Sequence record: NC_054914.1
Reading direction: 5' to 3' (one strand)
DNA from: Escherichia phage vB_EcoM-fFiEco06
Length of the DNA: 64,000 nucleotides
How positions within the stretch are numbered: the stretch's first letter is position 1; each line of letters begins with the position of its first letter. A program made the position numbers and the translations under genes. Shown piece by piece: positions 11,563-62,217 of the stretch. The notes under the pieces are model-generated. The model did no database searches. It was not told the DNA's origin and saw only the letters and a list, made by a program, of their open reading frames with translations.

Positions 11563-12165
11563 TTATAGATTAAATCCTTCAAAATCAAGAGTATAGATAG
11601 TGTATGTTGAATACTTTTTGTACTCATATCTATCTGCAATTCTAAATACACTTCCAGCTGGTATCATTACTTCTTGTTCATCTGAAACTAATTCCATATT
11701 ACGATAACGATGGCTATCCGGAAACTTAAAGTTTGGATTGTATTCTTTACAACGTAGAGCTTTTATAGCATACTCCTGGAAATTGAATACCATAGGAGCT
11801 TTGAATTCAAAAATAACTTGTGTGTTATACTCTAAACCGGAAGCAAAATGTAGAGCTATATTTTTATCATATGAAGCTGATACGACTTTATCAAATGTAA
11901 TAATATCAATTCCTTGATTTAATACTTGCTTAGTCTCAGCTGGAACACCTCTCCAAAGAGGTTTATCGTTTGGTTCCAAACGAGATTTGATTATTTCATT
12001 TAACCAAGTATGGTCATCTGGTTTATTAGTAATACAATGAATTAAAAGTTCAATTTCAGATAAATTAAACCCTTCAGAAAGTAATTCTTCACGAATAGAA
12101 GCACGCACCGATGCATCCATTGATTTTATTTTAAAATCTTTTAGTTGCATTATTGAGTATTTCAT
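11563..12165 (-). CDS. modA: ADP-ribosyltransferase ModA
   Basis: 200 aa; R-S-E type ART signature (LWRGV, SASY, EQEVMIP); size matches T4 ModA. Confidence 0.75.
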   Translation of the reverse strand: MKYSIMQLKDFKIKSMDASVRASIREELLSEGFNLSEIELLIHCITNKPDDHTWLNEIIKSRLEPNDKPLWRGVPAETKQVLNQGIDIITFDKVVSASYDKNIALHFASGLEYNTQVIFEFKAPMVFNFQEYAIKALRCKEYNPNFKFPDSHRYRNMELVSDEQEVMIPAGSVFRIADRYEYKKYSTYTIYTLDFEGFNL

Positions 12166-12785
12166 TCAACTACCTCAATATCATAAACTTTAAATGTTCC
12201 AAATGAATCGTGTAATTTTTCTTTTGAAATAGAAGTTATTCTATACTTTCCAATTGGAATCATCCATTCTTGTTCACGCACAATCATCATTAAGTTATCA
12301 GTACGCTCTGAATCTAGCCCATCAGTATCTTCATACGTGTACTTAAACTCAGTATTAGGAGAAGAAAGTATAATATCGCTGATATGGTCAGAATAATTAA
12401 AAGCTTTATCAGTTTTTAAGCGAAATATTATTTCAGTGAAATACTCAACATAAGAAAAACCACATGCTGTGTGCAAACTAGTAGTAAATGAATCTACTCT
12501 GTTCGTTGAAAACACTTCTCCGACTTGTAAATCTTTAATGAGTTCTTTTGTCGATTTTGATATACCACGATATAGCTGATAAGGCGATTTAGTTAAATGC
12601 TTTTTAACGATTTTATTCAACTGCCGATGAAGAGCTTCATTCTTTTTGGCTTCCATACACTGCCAAAGAACTGACTGTTCAAAGTCAGTAAATTTTTCAC
12701 AGACCTTTTTGTACATATCATATTGAAAATCAACACTTTCAGCTTTTATAGATAACTGTTCAACATCTGCGAGATTAATAATCAT
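12162..12785 (-). CDS. modB: ADP-ribosyltransferase ModB
   Basis: paralog of modA (YRGIS, STN, EQEWMIP); ATG at 12785 gives 207 aa, track start 12797. Confidence 0.75.
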   Translation of the reverse strand: MIINLADVEQLSIKAESVDFQYDMYKKVCEKFTDFEQSVLWQCMEAKKNEALHRQLNKIVKKHLTKSPYQLYRGISKSTKELIKDLQVGEVFSTNRVDSFTTSLHTACGFSYVEYFTEIIFRLKTDKAFNYSDHISDIILSSPNTEFKYTYEDTDGLDSERTDNLMMIVREQEWMIPIGKYRITSISKEKLHDSFGTFKVYDIEVVE

Positions 12786-12811
12786 GATAGCCTCCATATA
12801 CTTCAGAAGCT

Positions 12812-21744: not shown

Positions 21745-22900
21745 TTAACTGTTCGAGGTCAGTTTCTAAATCAGCTGCTGATTTACTTTTACTTTCTGGA
21801 GATTTAAATTTTTCAACCTTTGAGTTAATCAATTCATCAACTTCAGCTTCAACAATTTCATTACTATCAATAGCACCTAACTGATAAGCACGTTTAATAG
21901 CATCTCGGAATGGTTGATGCTTAAATAAAGGACCCCAGAATGTAGTACAGTTAGTATCTTTTGCACGCCAAGATTTTTCTTCGCGAATCATCTCGCCGGT
22001 TTCTTCGTCAAGAAATTCACGAGCATACCAGCCATTTTTTGGTTTTACTACAAATCCTAATTCTAGAGCCATATCTAACAATCCAGAATAAGGATCGATA
22101 CCACCGTCAAATTTAACATCAATAAAGAATTTACTTTTTTCTTTAACGGTACGAGATTTTTCTACATTTAGAACAAATTGATACCCCTGAAGATCAGAAC
22201 CATCTTTAATCTGGCGCTTACCGATAATGAATACAGTATCAGCCGAATACATTACGCCTGTACCACCTGTCATCACGGTTTTACTAAACATTTCAATTGT
22301 TTCAATTGTATGGTTAACCGCAACACATGGAATATTTTTAATGCTAAAATAAGGAGTAACAATACGGAATAATGACTTCAGTGATTTAGCACGAGTCATA
22401 TCTGCCACAGATTTTTCATTCAAGGCATCTTCCGTTTCTTTCTTGGAAGCCATATTACCAATTGAGTCGATGAATACAATAACCTTTTCACCACGCTCAA
22501 TAGCTTCAAGCTGATTCACCATATCAATTTTCAGTTGTTCAACTGACTGGATTGGTGTATGAATTACTCGTTCCGGGTCAACTCCCATGGATCGCAAATA
22601 AGCTGGAGTAATACCAAATTCGCTATCATAGAATAGACAAACCGCGTCAGGATATTTGTTTAAATATGCCGCAACCATAGTCAAAGACATATTTGATTTA
22701 AAGTGTTTAGAAGGCCCTGCGAAAATAGTTAAACCAGACTGCATACCGCCATCAATCGCACCAGAAATAGCAATATTAAGCATTGGGATTTTTGTACGGA
22801 TTACATCCTTTTCATTAAAGAATTTAGATGTAGTCAGTTCAGCAGTCATTTTAGAAGTGGAAGCTTTAATCAAACGGGATTTTAAATCTGCAATAGACAT
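21719..22900 (-). CDS. uvsX: UvsX RecA-like recombinase
   Basis: 393 aa; RecA fold Walker A GPSKHFKS; recalled as T4 UvsX. Confidence 0.9.
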   Translation of the reverse strand: MSIADLKSRLIKASTSKMTAELTTSKFFNEKDVIRTKIPMLNIAISGAIDGGMQSGLTIFAGPSKHFKSNMSLTMVAAYLNKYPDAVCLFYDSEFGITPAYLRSMGVDPERVIHTPIQSVEQLKIDMVNQLEAIERGEKVIVFIDSIGNMASKKETEDALNEKSVADMTRAKSLKSLFRIVTPYFSIKNIPCVAVNHTIETIEMFSKTVMTGGTGVMYSADTVFIIGKRQIKDGSDLQGYQFVLNVEKSRTVKEKSKFFIDVKFDGGIDPYSGLLDMALELGFVVKPKNGWYAREFLDEETGEMIREEKSWRAKDTNCTTFWGPLFKHQPFRDAIKRAYQLGAIDSNEIVEAEVDELINSKVEKFKSPESKSKSAADLETDLEQLSDMEEFNE

Positions 22901-22977
22901 TCATTTTTTCCATAGGCATCATTATATTTTCCTCACTGGTTAAAGATAGAGTAATTATAACACAATAAATTTAGGCA

Positions 22978-23826
22978 TTAATCAACTGCTATTGGATGAA
23001 TAGCATTAAACTTATGAAATGCTTCTGATTTTTCTTTACGCGAAACGCACATGCGAAGAACCTTTAATGGCTCGTCTTCTTCACCCAACGATTTTCGTTT
23101 TTCAATATTAGAAGTTTTCCAACGAGCTTGCTCTGGAAACTCTCTATTGATTTGCTCAAGCGCTCTATTATGTTTAGAATTACTACGAATTGAACTACAC
23201 CCGCCAGGAGCTTGTGCTTTTCCAGATACAACTAGATATTTGAACAAGGCCAAATGCGGATAACCTTGATTAATTAAATTGAGAAATGCATACATATCTT
23301 CGCATAAATCAATTTTTCCATACCCAATTTGTTCTGTCGTAAGTTTTCCGAGGTCATACCATGTATTCGTGAATCCATATGAATTTTCACGATAATTACC
23401 CCAAGATGAAGTAATTTTAAAAATTGGTAGACGAGCATGACCGTGATAATACCCGCAATCCATGGCATCTTCAACATATTGAATCAATTCATAGAACTGT
23501 TCACGAGTTAATTGATTAATTTTATCTACGCGCCGTTTATCGTCTCTCTTTCGTATTGAACTCATACGGATAGTAGTATCATCGTCAATCATCCAGATTC
23601 GTTGACCTGCATACATATCAGTAATTGCTTTACGAGTACCGGCAATTCCATTAACATCATCAGGAATAGTTACAATTTTAGCTCTAGACCCATAGGCATC
23701 ATAATAAGCTTTTTCTTCGTGTTCACGCACTATAATATGCGGTTCATAATCAGTCGGAAACATATCAAGGGCAGAAACTGCCCCGACACGTTGATAACTT
23801 GGAATTACGAATTGAATCATTTCCAC
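22978..23826 (-). CDS. GT-A-like glycosyltransferase, candidate beta-glucosyl-HMC-alpha-glucosyltransferase
   Basis: 282 aa; DDD (DxD-like) motif in IWMIDDDTTI; occupies the locus where T4 has beta-gt but is unrelated to it. Confidence 0.5.
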   Translation of the reverse strand: MEMIQFVIPSYQRVGAVSALDMFPTDYEPHIIVREHEEKAYYDAYGSRAKIVTIPDDVNGIAGTRKAITDMYAGQRIWMIDDDTTIRMSSIRKRDDKRRVDKINQLTREQFYELIQYVEDAMDCGYYHGHARLPIFKITSSWGNYRENSYGFTNTWYDLGKLTTEQIGYGKIDLCEDMYAFLNLINQGYPHLALFKYLVVSGKAQAPGGCSSIRSNSKHNRALEQINREFPEQARWKTSNIEKRKSLGEEDEPLKVLRMCVSRKEKSEAFHKFNAIHPIAVD

Positions 23827-54365: not shown

Positions 54366-54823
54366 TCAGCCTTATATTCAATAACAGGACATACTTTAGC
54401 TTTACGAGCTTTTAAAAATTCAACGATAATCGATTTCTTGGGTTGAATAGGAGGTAAACCTTTATACGCCCTATCAATATTTTCTACGTGTAAAGCATAA
54501 TCCTTTTTCCATTTATAATCTTTATATTTTTCACGCAGTTGTGCAGGAATAACAAATGAACCGATAATAAGTAAAACAAGCAAAATGGCAAGTATAAATG
54601 CTGATGGAATAAGAGTCCATAAACTACCAAAAATAAGCCATTTCTGTATGATTTCTGCGCAGATGATAGTTAGACCTACGAGTATAGTACATCCGAAAAA
54701 AGAAACGAAAAATGTAGGGATAACAATAGACCAAAAGTATGCGCACAGCGTCTTAGGTCGTTGCCATTCATCGTTAAACAATTTGAATAATTTATAGTGC
54801 CAAGAGTTTTCATTAATAATCAT
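54362..54823 (-). CDS. membrane protein
   Basis: 153 aa with several hydrophobic helices. Confidence 0.55.
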   Translation of the reverse strand: MIINENSWHYKLFKLFNDEWQRPKTLCAYFWSIVIPTFFVSFFGCTILVGLTIICAEIIQKWLIFGSLWTLIPSAFILAILLVLLIIGSFVIPAQLREKYKDYKWKKDYALHVENIDRAYKGLPPIQPKKSIIVEFLKARKAKVCPVIEYKAE

Positions 54824-54825
54824 AA

Positions 54826-55347
54826 TTATCCTTTCATTGAAGGTGTAACAGTTGTTAAATACTTAATCATAGCTTCAGCTTCTGATTTTGATAATGAAAT
54901 TTCTTCATTGTTTTGACGAATAGAAATAAAATCCGGATGACGGTCACCACCAGCTTTTAAAACACACATATAAGTATCAGTTTCATCTTCAATATCTGAA
55001 ATGATTGAAGCAGTTCCACATGAATGCGGTTTTTGATAAATCAATACAGCTTTTCTTCCGCCATTTGACTGTTCATAAACTTTTAATACATCAAACAAAT
55101 CACTTCTTTTATCAATAGCTAAAATGTTATTTTCATCTTCAATGTTAAATCCTTCGGATACTTCATAAAGTGTCACCCATAAATCGCCAATATCAATAAC
55201 AGCGTTCACTTTTCCATGACTTTCAAGAGCATGACAAATTTTCTTGATTTCGTCATAACTCATTTTAATAATATCATCTCCTTGAATAAGAAAGATGTCA
55301 TTTTTAAATTCAACACGAATTAAACCACTTCCACTTGAAATAAACAT
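54826..55347 (-). CDS. hypothetical protein (paralog pair member)
   Basis: 173 aa; C-terminus ISLSKSEAEAMIKYLTTVTPSM parallels next ORF. Confidence 0.55.
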   Translation of the reverse strand: MFISSGSGLIRVEFKNDIFLIQGDDIIKMSYDEIKKICHALESHGKVNAVIDIGDLWVTLYEVSEGFNIEDENNILAIDKRSDLFDVLKVYEQSNGGRKAVLIYQKPHSCGTASIISDIEDETDTYMCVLKAGGDRHPDFISIRQNNEEISLSKSEAEAMIKYLTTVTPSMKG

Positions 55348-56438: not shown

Positions 56439-56642
56439 TTACACTCTCGTATTATGATCGATAATTTCATCAAGAAACATATCTAACGCTTCTATAGCAT
56501 TATCAACTTTAGCTTCAAGTTCTTCAGCGCCTTTATTTGCAATGCCTGCCGAAAACCAAGCAAAGTCACTAAGTTCCTCATCTGCTTTGCGAATTAAAGC
56601 TACCAATTCTTTAATTTTATCTGCTTGTTCAATGCTAGTCAT
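56439..56642 (-). CDS. hypothetical acidic protein
   Basis: ATG at 56642 shares a base with upstream stop; track start 56678. Confidence 0.45.
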   Translation of the reverse strand: MTSIEQADKIKELVALIRKADEELSDFAWFSAGIANKGAEELEAKVDNAIEALDMFLDEIIDHNTRV

Positions 56643-56830
56643 TATTCCACCACATATGAAAGAGAGAATATTGCACACGCCATATGAGTTGCAGCTTCAT
56701 CACACATATCATAACGTTTCTTAAGAAGTTCTACAAGTTCTTCACTAGTAACTTCATCCATGTCGACGAAAAAATCACCATTAATGATGACGTAGATATT
56801 TCCTTCTTGATTAAGTGCTTCAATTTTCAT
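56642..56830 (-). CDS. hypothetical acidic protein
   Basis: ATG at 56830 with AGAGGAG Shine-Dalgarno, downstream of promoter; track start 56875 lies upstream of the -10. Confidence 0.45.
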
Positions 56831-56858
56831 GATGTTCTCCTCTTTATCCGATAGTTGT

Positions 56859-56888
56859 ATAGTATCACAGCTCAAACGGAAAGTAAAC
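56859..56888 (-). promoter_or_regulatory. early promoter
   Basis: GTTTAC-N18-TACTAT. Confidence 0.55.
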
Positions 56889-56903
56889 CGGTAAAATGAA
56901 AAA

Positions 56904-56921
56904 AGTCTCCCGAAGGAGACT
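56904..56921 (-). terminator. rho-independent terminator downstream of the rI cluster
   Basis: RNA AGUCUCC-UUCG-GGAGACU followed by UUUUUUCAUUUU. Confidence 0.7.
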
Positions 56922-56925
56922 AATG

Positions 56926-57312
56926 TTATTCGAGGGAAAGAAGATACTTACTCTGGTAAAACATTCCAGTAATATCATCTATCGTGCTTTGAATGGCTGG
57001 AGGCATTTCTTTATAAATGCTGTTAGATTGGTCTAGTATGCGATCAATCATTTTAATTGTGTCGGTAGGAAGTTTACTGGCATCTGGAATTGAAGGCGTG
57101 TATTTTCTACCAGAATACCCCAAATATTGCTCACCAAATTTATCAATCAAATCTGGCAATTCGGAGAAAATAAAATCGTATGCTTTGTGTCTAGCATAAC
57201 TTTTAGTTTCAAAATGCGCAGAATGAAAATAAGCTTGTGCAGCCATTAATAAACCTAAGTATTCATCTGCCTTTGAAGGTTTTCCACTTTGTGAAAAGTC
57301 GCTGAATTTCAT
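56926..57312 (-). CDS. hypothetical protein downstream of rI
   Basis: 128 aa; ATGA overlap with rI. Confidence 0.6.
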
Positions 57313-58460: not shown

Positions 58461-58646
58461 TTAAAGCGTATTCACATAAGCTATTAATTCGTTTTCTTTC
58501 TTATCAAACCGATCAGCAAATTCTTCCTGCTGTTCTGGAGATAGCGGGCCGTATTCATCATAAAAGGTGTTTGCTTCTGTATGCTCATCTAGAAGTTCAT
58601 GGATAAGCTCAAACAATTTATCTTTTTGTTCTTTACTCAGACTCAT
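58461..58646 (-). CDS. hypothetical acidic protein
   Basis: 61 aa ORF. Confidence 0.5.
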   Translation of the reverse strand: MSLSKEQKDKLFELIHELLDEHTEANTFYDEYGPLSPEQQEEFADRFDKKENELIAYVNTL

Positions 58647-58812
58647 ATATTAATTTCCAGGAGTTTTAAAATAATTCGCTTTTGCTTAAATATTTCCATA
58701 GTTAAATGACCAGTATCTTTTTGACCGATTCCAATGGCAAAACCTTTATTGACAGCGAGTTCAATTAAATTATCAAGCTCACGTAACACTTCATACTGTA
58801 ACTCAAAACTAT

Positions 58813-59025
58813 TCATTTCGGTTTACCTTCTTTAACGAAATCTGGATAAGGATAAAATCCCGAATAAAATCCTTCACCTTTATGATTGATGCATCCTTTA
58901 TTAGAACAATAGCACCAATAATCGAAATCACAAGCCATTTCATCGTTGCATAAAGCAAAAACAACTGGCCATTTACACTTTTCACAATGGGCATTTTTAA
59001 GAATACTAGTTTGGCTCATAACCAT
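58813..59025 (-). CDS. Cys-rich hypothetical protein
   Basis: 70 aa; HCEKCK ... CNDEMAC ... CYCSNKGC; preferred over the overlapping 58809..58994 frame. Confidence 0.45.
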   Translation of the reverse strand: MVMSQTSILKNAHCEKCKWPVVFALCNDEMACDFDYWCYCSNKGCINHKGEGFYSGFYPYPDFVKEGKPK

Positions 59026-59243
59026 GTAACCTTTAAGCAGTATTCTTCTACATGCTGTTTACGACCTTTCTTATCAATAAAGGTATATTCAACGAATGTT
59101 CCAATGTAGTCTTTATCTACATCATGCGGACTATTAATTGGACATTTAGTACGGCAAATGCGTTCCCATTGACGAATAATTACTGCCTTATTCTTTGGGT
59201 CATATGGATGTGGATAATGTATATTCATAATAACGGTTCCCAA
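59016..59243 (-). CDS. hypothetical protein
   Basis: 75 aa ORF. Confidence 0.5.
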   Translation of the reverse strand: MGTVIMNIHYPHPYDPKNKAVIIRQWERICRTKCPINSPHDVDKDYIGTFVEYTFIDKKGRKQHVEEYCLKVTWL

Positions 59244-59692
59244 TCAACAATCACAATTTCTAATTTAGAGGAATATGTATCTAAAATCCCCTCAATAATA
59301 TCCCAGTTCCCTTTACCTATGCCTGCACCAATCCTAGGCATATAGATTGTAGGTTTAATCAGTTTATTTTCACCAAACTCATTTAATTCTAACATACAAT
59401 TCATTAAAGCGGAATACTCAAAATTTGGCCCTGGTTGAAATTGAGTATAAAGGTTGAAGCAATACGCTTTATGAGTCCTAAAGTATTTTTCATAGACTGA
59501 GTAAGAACCGAGTTTAGTTACATCACCCCATTCAGTCTGTAATTTATCAGCTTCCAAAATTTTAGGGAAAGCTTTGGTTAATTGACCCGCTACGCCTGAA
59601 CCCATAGTATGAAAACAATTGCATCCATGCGCAATATTTTTACCTTCAGCGAAAAGGGCGACAATATCGCCCTTGATATATTTTACAATCAT
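59225..59692 (-). CDS. macro domain protein (ADP-ribose binding or processing)
   Basis: 155 aa; GDI ... NIAHGCNCFHTMGSGVAGQ and IYMPRIGAGIGKGNWD resemble macro-domain signatures. Confidence 0.6.
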   Translation of the reverse strand: MIVKYIKGDIVALFAEGKNIAHGCNCFHTMGSGVAGQLTKAFPKILEADKLQTEWGDVTKLGSYSVYEKYFRTHKAYCFNLYTQFQPGPNFEYSALMNCMLELNEFGENKLIKPTIYMPRIGAGIGKGNWDIIEGILDTYSSKLEIVIVDWEPLL

Positions 59693-60030
59693 CTAGTACT
59701 CAATCCTCGATTATAAGAATCTACCAAACGGTCAACCATTGAATGACAAGCGGCTTTATCTTTCTCCTCCGCAACTGAACATTCTAAGGTATTCCACTTT
59801 TTAGCATATCGTTTTAATAATGTATCGTTTTTGTATCTGCTTGATTTATCTCTTTCTCCGTCTTTATATGCATATATTAATTTCTGCGCAAATTCAGCTT
59901 GGCATGCTTTATTTTTCCCACAATAATCTGCCGCAGTGCGATTTACATATTCTCTAATTTCAGTATATGATGTATCTGCTAACGCAGAAAATGAAATTAA
60001 TCCTATACATAAAACCAAAATTTTAGTCAT
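59689..60030 (-). CDS. secreted hypothetical protein
   Basis: 113 aa with signal peptide and four cysteines. Confidence 0.55.
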   Translation of the reverse strand: MTKILVLCIGLISFSALADTSYTEIREYVNRTAADYCGKNKACQAEFAQKLIYAYKDGERDKSSRYKNDTLLKRYAKKWNTLECSVAEEKDKAACHSMVDRLVDSYNRGLSTR

Positions 60031-60568
60031 TTACTATTTCCAAAAGTTTATTATTTTTAAGGTAATTAGCCTTTTCTAGGACTTCAGAAGCATATTTAGA
60101 ACCTGCTTTAACATTCCATCCCGAATTATAAGATGATATTGCTTTTCTTATATCGCCCTTATGTATATTTAACCAATAAGAAAGTTCAATGTACGCCCAG
60201 GAAGCTGAATTGGATCGTTTATTCAACATTCTTTTTATTTCAGCATCGGTCATATTATAACCAAGTTCCTTAACTCTTGCTCGCATAGTAGGCAAATAAT
60301 TTTGGAACATTCCATAAGCGTGATGCTTTGGTTTAGATTTTAAATTAACTCCGCCAGAGCTTTCTTGCCATAAAATGGCTGCCATTATATGGCCTAATCC
60401 GCTCTTGTGGATGTTTTTGTGTGTTTTATATTTTCCATCCTTAGAAAATTGTTCCCCGAATTGATACGCGTAACGCATGTTATCGAGTTGGACATTACTG
60501 AAAGTATGCTCGGAGCTATGTGCCATCATTGAAATGGCCAATAGACCAGCGAGTAGTGCTTTTCTCAT
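60023..60568 (-). CDS. secreted lytic transglycosylase-like protein
   Basis: 181 aa with signal peptide; WQESSGG and YGMFQ resemble SLT-domain catalytic region. Confidence 0.55.
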   Translation of the reverse strand: MRKALLAGLLAISMMAHSSEHTFSNVQLDNMRYAYQFGEQFSKDGKYKTHKNIHKSGLGHIMAAILWQESSGGVNLKSKPKHHAYGMFQNYLPTMRARVKELGYNMTDAEIKRMLNKRSNSASWAYIELSYWLNIHKGDIRKAISSYNSGWNVKAGSKYASEVLEKANYLKNNKLLEIVND

Positions 60569-60575
60569 GCTTACC

Positions 60576-61037
60576 TCATTGAGTTTTAATTACTGCTTTA
60601 GAAGCCTTTCCTGGTAAACGACGACTGTTGATAATTGCCATCCTGCATTGAAGTGACGGGTTTTTGAACTTCTCATTAGGCTTACAAACCGTAAATCCAA
60701 GCCAAAGATTTCCATCTGTGATTTCTAAACGTCCAGGACGATATTCAACCCCATCAATAAAATCCTCGTCAATGTCAGGACGCGGAGGCATACTCAGGAA
60801 TTCATTAACTTCTAAAACATGGTCTTTTATTTTATGGAATAATTCAAAAACATATGTCTCATCAATCTCCCGTTGAATTGCACGATCAAGAAGATGTTGA
60901 GAATATTTTAGATGAAACGATGAGACTCCTGCTGCTTTTGATGCCTCACGAATCTCATTGTTAATTTGACGAAACTCCGACTCAAAATGACGACGAAGCT
61001 TATTTCGACGGATAAAAACTTCTGTATTGATAGTCAT
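60576..61037 (-). CDS. regB: RegB site-specific endoribonuclease
   Basis: 153 aa; recalled as T4 RegB. Confidence 0.85.
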   Translation of the reverse strand: MTINTEVFIRRNKLRRHFESEFRQINNEIREASKAAGVSSFHLKYSQHLLDRAIQREIDETYVFELFHKIKDHVLEVNEFLSMPPRPDIDEDFIDGVEYRPGRLEITDGNLWLGFTVCKPNEKFKNPSLQCRMAIINSRRLPGKASKAVIKTQ

Positions 61038-61064
61038 GTTGTTCTCCTCTTAACTGATAGAAAA

Positions 61065-61094
61065 ATTATACCACAGTCAAGAGGAAAAGTAAAC
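61065..61094 (-). promoter_or_regulatory. early promoter upstream of regB
   Basis: GTTTAC-N18-TATAAT. Confidence 0.6.
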
Positions 61095-61096
61095 AG

Positions 61097-61417
61097 TTAT
61101 TCTTTAAATCTAATCAATTTATTCATAGACTTTGAAACTTCTGCACGAACCTCATGTAGATTTTTGAGCTGTTCAAGACGCTGCGTATAGTAAGCAATTT
61201 CATCTTCTTCGAGACAGTCCTGTGAATCTTCTTTAAGATACCGTGCATAGTCCTGGAAAGCGTTACGGACTACTTCCTGGAAGTCATCAAGACTTTGAAT
61301 TTTCTTAGGAGCAGCAGACACACGACGAGGGGCAGTATAATACTCATAACCAAACCCTGCGCTTAATTGAGCCATTAGTATTTTTCCTCTGGTTGGAACA
61401 CAGCACGACAAGCCCAC
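61097..61417 (-). CDS. hypothetical protein
   Basis: 106 aa ORF. Confidence 0.5.
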
Positions 61418-61677
61418 ATACTGGCTTCTTTGAGTTTCGTTTTAGCAATAGCTAACTGATCGAGGCTTTCAGCATAATTCTTCGCGAGTTCAAAGTCTTC
61501 GCAATTATCTAGTGCTTCCCAGAATTCATCATATAAAGCATCAAAGATAAGTCCTAAACGAACTTCAGCGTCTTTAATAGCATTTACTTTACCGATTTTT
61601 TCGTCGGTATGTGGCTTATAACCTTTAATATCTTCAATCATATTTGACTTCCTCACCAGTACATAAATCGTATTCAA
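61375..61677 (-). CDS. hypothetical protein
   Basis: 100 aa ORF; start uncertain. Confidence 0.5.
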
Positions 61678-61855
61678 CTAAACGAATAGGTTCATGAATG
61701 CCATATCCCTGAACAGAAATTTCTGTCGTAGGATAAATTCCACTAATATCACCCATATTCCACGCTTCATTAAATTGATGTTCGCCTGAATTACTAAACC
61801 ATTCTGCGAAAGCATTTAACACATCTTTAGAACCTTCAATAATTATCTTTGCCAT
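61634..61855 (-). CDS. hypothetical protein
   Basis: 73 aa ORF. Confidence 0.5.
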   Translation of the reverse strand: MAKIIIEGSKDVLNAFAEWFSNSGEHQFNEAWNMGDISGIYPTTEISVQGYGIHEPIRLVEYDLCTGEEVKYD

Positions 61856-62217
61856 TACAAGCTCTCAGTAAAGGTACGAGCGATAACGTCGCGCTGCTGT
61901 TCCGGAGTCAGAGAGTTAAAGCGAACTGCATAACCGGATACACGGATGGTCAGCTGCGGATATTTTTCCGGATGCTTAACTGCATCTTCCAGAGTTTCAC
62001 GACGCAGAACGTTAACGTTCAGGTGTTGACCACCTTCAATTTTAACTGTAGGCTGTGTCTCAATTTCAATTTCACGGGCATGCAAACCATAGAAAATTTC
62101 TGGGTCTACAAAAGAGTCCTCTTTAAAGGTTTTAGAGACAATAATTCGTGCTTGAATACCATCTTCAAAATAAATAGTACCTTTATGTGTGCCTTCAAGA
62201 ATTTGATATGCTTTCAT
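61855..62217 (-). CDS. GrcA/YfiD-like autonomous glycyl radical cofactor
   Basis: 120 aa; C-terminus [29 protein letters not shown] matches the glycyl-radical domain of pyruvate formate-lyase / E. coli YfiD; local GC content visibly higher. Confidence 0.8.

Follow-up and report, generated by a model that had tools for sequence, protein, structure and literature searches.

Tk.4 (AdfM) of Escherichia phage vB_EcoM-fFiEco06, a stand-alone macrodomain protein with a probable role as an eraser against DarTG2

We analyzed a 64,000-nucleotide stretch of DNA from Escherichia phage vB_EcoM-fFiEco06 (NC_054914.1), which we refer to as the window, and focused on a minus-strand gene, tk.4, that encodes a stand-alone macrodomain protein. 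The open reading frame (ORF) listing places the coding sequence at 59225..59692 on the minus strand, where one ATG-started ORF specifies a protein of 155 amino acids, as an earlier reading made from the sequence alone (the sequence-only reading) had proposed. The protein is identical to T4 Tk.4 at 155 of 155 residues, and, as in T4 and PYPS2T, its gene lies between vs and tk.3. The locus is 100% identical to several Tequatrovirus genomes, fHoEco02 and PYPS2T among them, and the tk.3-tk.4-vs-vs.1-regB segment shares 97.9% DNA identity with T4. The ORF is gene tk.4 of a T4-type phage, since renamed adfM. On the minus strand, the genes form a chain in the order regB, vs.1, vs, tk.4, tk.3, three small ORFs and tk, joined mostly by short start/stop overlaps; the named neighbors of tk.4 are vs, vs.1, tk.3 (DUF7202) and tk. 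According to the ORF coordinates and the sequence, the stop codon of vs and the start codon of tk.4 overlap in an ATGA at 59689..59692 (minus strand), an arrangement that is the same in T4 and PYPS2T. In GenBank records, the gene product already goes under the labels 'macro domain protein', 'ADP-ribose binding module protein', 'Poa1p-like family protein' or 'phosphatase'.

The motifs that the sequence-only reading had picked out, namely G8-D9-I10, N19 to Q37 (NIAHGCNCFHTMGSGVAGQ) and I116 to D131 (IYMPRIGAGIGKGNWD), were verified in the raw sequence, and we counted their conservation across 66 Tk.4 family members, down to about 35% identity. Codons G8-D9-I10 (59663..59671, minus strand) make up the N-terminal 'GD' element, which aligns with the adenine-side ADP-ribose contacts N8 and L9 of DarG; G8 is present in 64 of the 66 members, and all 66 have D or N at position 9. 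Codons N19-Q37 (59582..59638, minus strand) encode the H22-G-C-N25-C motif together with loop 1 (M-G-x-G-x-A). H22 is found in 61 of the 66 members, G23 and A35 are invariant, and N25 aligns with DarG N22, whose replacement (N22A) gave the second most damaging DarG mutant (PMC5179494). Codons I116-D131 (59300..59347, minus strand) encode loop 2, the glycine-rich diphosphate-binding loop, in which P119 and I121 are invariant and which aligns with DarG G117/G119/G121. The macro pocket motifs present in Tk.4 are D9, N25, G31-S-G33 and G122-A-G124, with N25, G33, G122 and G124 invariant. When Tk.4 is compared with the published ADP-ribose contact list of T. aquaticus DarG (PMC5179494), the contact positions are mostly conserved or similar (D9, I10, N25, V34, Q37, T83, G122, G124 and G126).

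The macrodomain call of the sequence-only reading stands on profile searches, structure-database matches and a predicted fold. Residues 22-132 of Tk.4 score 27.7 bits on Pfam Macro (PF01661), above its gathering cut-off of 22 (E = 2.9e-6). Used as a single sequence against the PDB, Tk.4 matches Bacteroides BT1257 (1.3e-9), yeast Poa1p (2.8e-6), DarG (5.2e-4) and human TARG1 (6e-4), and a profile of the 66 homologues reaches PDB macrodomains at E-values of about 1e-18 to 1e-11 (best, 7.6e-18). An AlphaFold2 model built on the 66-homologue alignment is confident (pLDDT 95.6, pTM 0.90). The predicted fold had been named as a point at which the call might fail; the model has the three-layer alpha/beta/alpha macro fold. 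Foldseek matches this model with a probability of 1.00 to TARG1, Poa1p, BT1257 and DarG, with TM-scores of about 0.7-0.8 (about 0.77 for DarG) and with E-values of 1.9e-9 for TARG1, the best match, 2.6e-9 for Poa1p and 2e-7 to 4.5e-7 for DarG. MacroD and viral macrodomains rank about four orders of magnitude behind TARG1, Poa1p and DarG. It is virtually certain that Tk.4 is a macrodomain, and it belongs to the TARG1/Poa1p/DarG branch. By tblastn, 2845 phage records contain a homologue; phages of Pseudomonas, Vibrio, Acinetobacter, Aeromonas and Campylobacter are among them. We rejected YmdB-like regulation of RNase III and O-acetyl-ADP-ribose deacetylation as functions of Tk.4, since their basis is limited to generic JGI labels and MacroD ranks far lower in Foldseek; likewise, no specific support was found for O-acetyl-ADP-ribose processing, which the sequence-only reading had listed among possible roles.

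Functional evidence for Tk.4 comes from published genetics on the identical T4 protein. When a T4 transposon library was challenged with DarTG2-expressing E. coli, tk.4 was the single significant hit (HIDEN-SEQ, bioRxiv 10.1101/2025.11.20.689424, 20 November 2025), and a clean tk.4 knockout sensitizes T4 to DarTG2. The authors of that study pointed to a structural resemblance between Tk.4 and M. tuberculosis DarG and gave the gene the new name adfM, for anti-DarT factor Macrodomain (bioRxiv 10.1101/2025.11.20.689424). The suggestion that the protein might counter host ADP-ribosylating defences finds genetic support in this screen and clean deletion, and the plating of a deletion mutant on a DarTG host, which had been proposed as a check, was already in print, with the deletion being DarTG2-sensitive. 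Given these genetics and the complete identity of the two proteins, the finding is already known: the ORF was correctly recognized as a macrodomain, and it has been characterized genetically as T4 AdfM. T4 lacking both adfA and adfN is still resistant to DarTG2, so another factor is expected, and tk.4 fills that gap. We regard an anti-DarTG2 role for Tk.4 as highly likely, and the identification of the ORF as adfM explains the DarTG2 resistance of T4-like phages. DarTG is a common phage defence to which T-even phages devote at least three genes, adfA and adfN against DarTG1 and tk.4/adfM against DarTG2.

Taken as a whole, the evidence is probably best explained if Tk.4/AdfM is an ADP-ribose-handling macrodomain that acts as an orphan antitoxin-like eraser against DarTG2. 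The gene would be expressed as part of a tight series of overlapping genes that lies downstream of regB. The DarT2 toxin ADP-ribosylates thymidines in single-stranded DNA. In Tk.4, the ADP-ribose moiety is predicted to be bound in a conserved pocket lined by D9, N25, loop 1 (G31-x-G33) and loop 2 (G122-x-G124), and Tk.4 would cleave whatever substituent sits at C1'' of the distal ribose. Its most likely action would be to free the modified thymidines of replicating phage DNA from ADP-ribose, in which case the bond hydrolyzed would be C1''-N3 of ADP-ribosyl-thymidine in phage single-stranded DNA. For direct DNA de-ADP-ribosylation as such, we express a cautious preference. Such an eraser would operate without the DarT-binding domain of DarG, and the DarG macrodomain alone suffices as an antitoxin (PMC5179494).

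Comparison with DarG itself shows both the basis of this explanation and its limits. The DarG macrodomains of T. aquaticus (5M31/5M3E), M. tuberculosis (5M3I) and E. coli (DarG2) share with Tk.4 the fold, the branch and the ADP-ribose pocket, and both proteins oppose DarT2. Alignment of the Tk.4 family profile with the M. tuberculosis DarG macrodomain by hhalign gives a probability of 98.1, and the sole NCBIfam match of Tk.4 is NF048014 (DarG of DarTG2), at 2.5e-7 and in the macrodomain part. Tk.4 scores 30.3 bits on this profile, far below the equivalog cut-off of 250, and covers profile positions 2-146 of 338. At 155 amino acids, it consists of the macrodomain only, with neither a C-terminal DarT-binding domain nor an adjacent darT, whereas E. 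coli DarG has 323 amino acids and is paired with DarT. Identity to DarG is 21-24%, and the changes from DarG to Tk.4 include PPLG to PRIG in addition to those at K80, W83 and N120 described below.

Several points weigh against a DNA eraser of this kind. The preprint states only that removal of ADP-ribose from DNA by Tk.4 'seems likely', and we saw in its text neither a tk.4 complementation nor a catalytic mutant (bioRxiv 10.1101/2025.11.20.689424). The lysine that is essential in DarG and shared by TARG1 is replaced in Tk.4 by an invariant glutamine, and DarG W83 and N120 are replaced by P87 and I125. Finally, macrodomain proteins embedded in phage NARP1 operons lie far closer to Tk.4 (116-149 bits on its family profile) than do DarG (48-71 bits) or the PhiKZ AdfM protein (37 bits).

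The glutamine in question, Q84, is encoded within codons Y82-T83-Q84 (59441..59449, minus strand) and stands where TARG1 (K84) and DarG (K80) have their catalytic lysine in three independent sequence or profile alignments, by HMMER (family profile against TARG1), MAFFT and hhalign (family profile against M. tuberculosis DarG). All 66 family members have Gln at this position. DarG K80 is the equivalent of TARG1 K84, and the K80A mutant has neither DNA de-ADP-ribosylation activity nor antitoxin function (PMC5179494); DarG and TARG1, which have this lysine in common, are both reported to reverse thymidine-linked ADP-ribose. Human TARG1/OARD1 (4J5R/4J5S) shares the GD, H-x, MGxG and PRIGxG motifs with Tk.4, but its K84/D125 dyad corresponds to Q84/G126 in the phage protein. 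Judged from these alignments, the pocket of Tk.4 is conserved but the canonical nucleophile is not, and its catalytic site is not DarG-like in detail, a point that is added by the present analysis.

Since Tk.4 does not have the catalytic lysine of DarG and TARG1, its chemistry must rest on other residues, for which Q84, H22, N25 and D49 are candidates. By analogy, Streptomyces SCO6735 (5E3B) shows that a member of this branch can catalyze without the lysine: it is a TARG1-branch macrodomain that does not have the catalytic Lys/Asp pair and still removes ADP-ribose from glutamate. SCO6735 is bacterial and DNA-damage-inducible, and the substrate known for it is protein, not DNA. Yeast Poa1p (6LFQ-6LFU) has the H-x-C-N-C motif in common with Tk.4 but is a longer protein and carries Ser where Tk.4 has Q84. 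Bacteroides BT1257 (2FG1/2AFC), whose function is given as unknown in its deposition title, resembles Tk.4 in H-x-C-N (HICND) and in having Gln at position 84, but it does not have D49.

By sequence, the nearest relatives found for Tk.4 with an informative gene context are the NARP1-embedded macrodomain proteins, a point likewise added here. The tblastn matches of Tk.4 include Vibrio phage Noelle gp169, flanked by Adps and Namat in a NARP1 operon, and Acinetobacter phage Aci02-2 gp130, which adjoins Namat. Both are 35% identical to Tk.4; BLASTP E-values and family-profile scores are 3e-23 and 116.0 bits for Noelle gp169, and 2e-24 and 148.7 bits for Aci02-2 gp130. By comparison, the E. coli DarG2 macrodomain is 24% identical to Tk.4 (BLASTP 9e-8; 71.1 bits, with the full-length protein scored), the M. 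tuberculosis and T. aquaticus DarG macrodomains score 54.8 and 47.6 bits on the family profile, and PhiKZ gp104 (AdfM) gives a 23-residue local match (BLASTP 0.005; 36.9 bits). The NARP1-embedded proteins have the H-x-C-N-C motif, D49 and Y-(T/G)-Q, with Gln at the 'catalytic lysine' position, in common with Tk.4. H22, C24 and C26 are shared by Tk.4 and the NARP1-embedded proteins, and partly by BT1257, but not by DarG. At the discriminating positions 22, 24, 49, 82, 84, 125 and 128, Tk.4 agrees with the NARP1-embedded proteins at most and PhiKZ gp104 agrees with DarG at all.

This kinship supports the principal alternative, that Tk.4 is primarily an Adpp/Poa1p-type small-molecule enzyme. Its substrate would be ADP-ribose-1''-phosphate (ADPR-1''P) or a related soluble derivative arising from NAD-consuming defences such as RES-domain NADases, and its DarTG2 effect would be a secondary or side activity, or the enzyme would have dual substrates. 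In its favor, H22, C24, C26, D49, Y82 and Q84 set Tk.4 and the NARP1-embedded proteins apart from DarG as a group, Tk.4 matches PHROG 335, labelled 'phosphatase', at 1.3e-65, and phage macrodomains mostly target soluble ADP-ribose derivatives, according to Iyer et al. Adpp of Vibrio phage Gary (gp137) converts ADPR-1''P to ADP-ribose in vitro and is required against aRES, its activity allowing NARP1 to rebuild NAD+ and overcome this defence (bioRxiv 10.64898/2026.01.28.702374, January 2026). Our comparisons were made with Noelle gp169 and Aci02-2 gp130, and Gary gp137 is likened to Tk.4 through its described Adps-phosphatase-Namat operon layout, which is the same as in Noelle. However, Adpp is useful only together with NARP1, and no similarity to Adps or Namat was found anywhere in the 64-kb window. 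Among Escherichia-phage records, 189 have a Namat homologue compared with 1000 that have a Tk.4 homologue. Furthermore, the sole reported tk.4 phenotype is specific to DarTG2, whose toxin DarT2 targets DNA and not the NAD pool. Adpp resides inside an Adps-Adpp-Namat operon and acts with NARP1 against aRES, whereas Tk.4 stands alone and has a reported anti-DarTG2 phenotype. We consider it unlikely that Tk.4 is primarily a small-molecule enzyme. Native Adpp chemistry, with a C1''-phosphate leaving group, is the main rival to DNA de-ADP-ribosylation but need not exclude it, because both reactions cleave the C1'' substituent of the distal ribose.

These observations also bear on the form that the DNA eraser would take. 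We tentatively suggest that Tk.4 is a member of a Gln-type, Adpp/Poa1p-like lineage and not a captured DarG, that it may be a lysine-independent DNA de-ADP-ribosylase whose activity was either acquired independently or always held, that it may have dual substrates (ADPR-1''P and ADP-ribosyl-thymidine), and that it may have converged with the AdfM protein of PhiKZ. PhiKZ gp104 (AdfM), like Tk.4, is a stand-alone phage macrodomain that counters DarT2, and it strips ADP-ribose from DarT2-modified TNTC DNA in vitro (Cell Rep 2026, PMC13309987), a paper in which gp104 independently received the name AdfM. It belongs to a separate lineage and has the DarG signature (FPTK, PPLGxxNGGL). In the literature of 2025-26, the name AdfM is carried by two unrelated lineages, the Gln-type, Adpp-like Tk.4 of T4 and the Lys-type, DarG-like gp104 of PhiKZ (22518-23006 on the contig analyzed, L003), and this nomenclature collision could mislead the transfer of annotation. 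Isoelectric point was dropped as a proxy for DNA binding: Tk.4 has a pI of 5.9, and the proxy is uninformative because gp104, a proven DNA de-ADP-ribosylase, has a pI of 5.05. The residual interest of Tk.4 lies in its chemistry, with Gln in place of the DarG-type catalytic lysine and a grouping with ADPR-1''P phosphatases. If Tk.4 truly cleaves thymidine-linked ADP-ribose, it would represent a second macrodomain catalytic solution for N-glycosidic DNA adducts, and the 'phosphatase'-labelled phage macrodomains across the 2845 phage records may act on a wider set of substrates than their labels imply.

A further alternative is that Tk.4 hydrolyzes no adduct and instead blocks DarT2, or shields ADP-ribosylated DNA, as a catalytically weak ADP-ribose reader. 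The missing canonical lysine would fit such a protein, the anti-DarT factors AdfA and AdfB are direct DarT inhibitors, and the K80A mutant of full-length DarG remains an inhibitor of DarT, by way of protein-protein contact (PMC5179494). That inhibition, however, needs the C-terminal domain of DarG, which is absent from Tk.4, and a K80A protein reduced to the macrodomain is not inhibitory (PMC5179494). Non-catalytic neutralization of DarT2 is unlikely on these grounds, and the strict invariance of N25, D49, Q84, G122 and G124 over 66 sequences, which suggests an enzyme, together with the enzymatic activity of sister proteins, makes it quite improbable.

The weakest alternative is that Tk.4 erases or tunes the marks made by the phage's own ADP-ribosyltransferases Alt, ModA and ModB. 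The sequence-only reading was right that ModA and ModB are encoded in the same window: modA (11563-12165, minus strand) and modB (12162-12797, minus strand) both match PHROG 832, 'RNA polymerase ADP-ribosylase', at 5.5e-34 and 6.3e-42, respectively, and in tblastn both ORFs match genes annotated modA/modB in T-even phages. Their presence in the same genome speaks for a pairing, and paired writer and eraser genes have some precedent in toxin-antitoxin systems. The pairing with phage ADP-ribosyltransferases was the headline of the sequence-only reading, and here linkage chemistry, distance and distribution are all contrary to it. Alt, ModA and ModB are R-S-E (cholera-toxin-type), arginine-modifying enzymes, and arginine-linked ADP-ribose is reversed by ARH1/DraG-type hydrolases, whereas the TARG1 and MacroD macrodomains act on acidic residues. 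The tk.4 gene lies about 46 kb from modA and modB. ModB homologues are found in 1011 records, largely of enterobacterial phages, so that Tk.4 homologues are about three times as widespread and occur also in phage groups without ModB; in addition, the transposon-screen phenotype is specific to DarTG2 (bioRxiv 10.1101/2025.11.20.689424). A partnership of Tk.4 with ModA and ModB is rejected on linkage chemistry and distribution, and erasure of Alt, ModA or ModB marks is exceedingly unlikely. The modA and modB genes are adjacent, with a 4-nt overlap, and the longest ModB ORF starts a few residues (MEAI) ahead of the MIINL start of most tblastn matches.

With respect to expression, the gene order suggests that tk.4 is expressed early in infection. 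A scan of 58800-62200 for promoters and terminators returned 12 promoter-like sites against 12.5 expected from shuffles, so it is uninformative on the timing of tk.4, and tk.4 goes unmentioned in a T4 omics paper (PMC9697503). The tk.4 mRNA contains, 18 nt downstream of its AUG, a GC-rich 9-bp hairpin (AAGGGCGAC...GUCGCCCUU, 59654-59674) that was flagged as terminator-like on the plus strand. Its folding z-score of -1.8 is not significant, and it is probably incidental to the KGDIVALF codons.

The window phage and T4 are close relatives that differ in the tk.1-tk.2 segment and in mobD. Where T4 (60346-60712) has tk.1 and tk.2, the window has a minus-strand segment (58461-59015) with three small ORFs of 61 amino acids (DUF7438), 57 amino acids (no family) and 70 amino acids (Phage_zn_bind). 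This segment has no blastn match to T4 and is, therefore, a variable mini-cassette between tk and tk.3. The T4 segment containing the homing endonuclease gene mobD (T4 56456-57258) has no counterpart at about 54373-55329 of the window, where the flanks align at 93-95% identity.

Two homologues of Tk.4 are labelled as belonging to bacterial metagenome-assembled genomes (GCA_051648945.1 and GCA_051660865.1; Bacilli, Culicoidibacterales) and lie on contigs of about 40 kb. Both contigs are rich in T4-like genes (Rnl1, PNKP, dCMP deaminase, spanin and a Dda-like helicase) and are probably phage contigs binned into these assemblies. As both homologues sit on T4-like phage contigs, examination of the two revealed no bacterial operon context in which a cellular relative of Tk.4 might have kept an ancestral partner. 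On both contigs, the macrodomain gene is near RNA-repair genes.

Directly upstream of tk.4, vs (59689-60030, minus strand) encodes the valyl-tRNA synthetase modifier, which has no Pfam family; in minimal medium, no T4 gene was depleted more strongly than vs (HIDEN-SEQ, bioRxiv 10.1101/2025.11.20.689424). The next gene, vs.1 (60023-60568, minus strand), encodes a protein of 181 amino acids whose N terminus has a hydrophobic, signal-like segment and which matches the SLT lytic transglycosylase family weakly, though above threshold (25.1 bits versus 21.3). On the distantly T4-like contig from GCA_051660865.1, an SLT-domain gene is present two genes downstream of the macrodomain gene.

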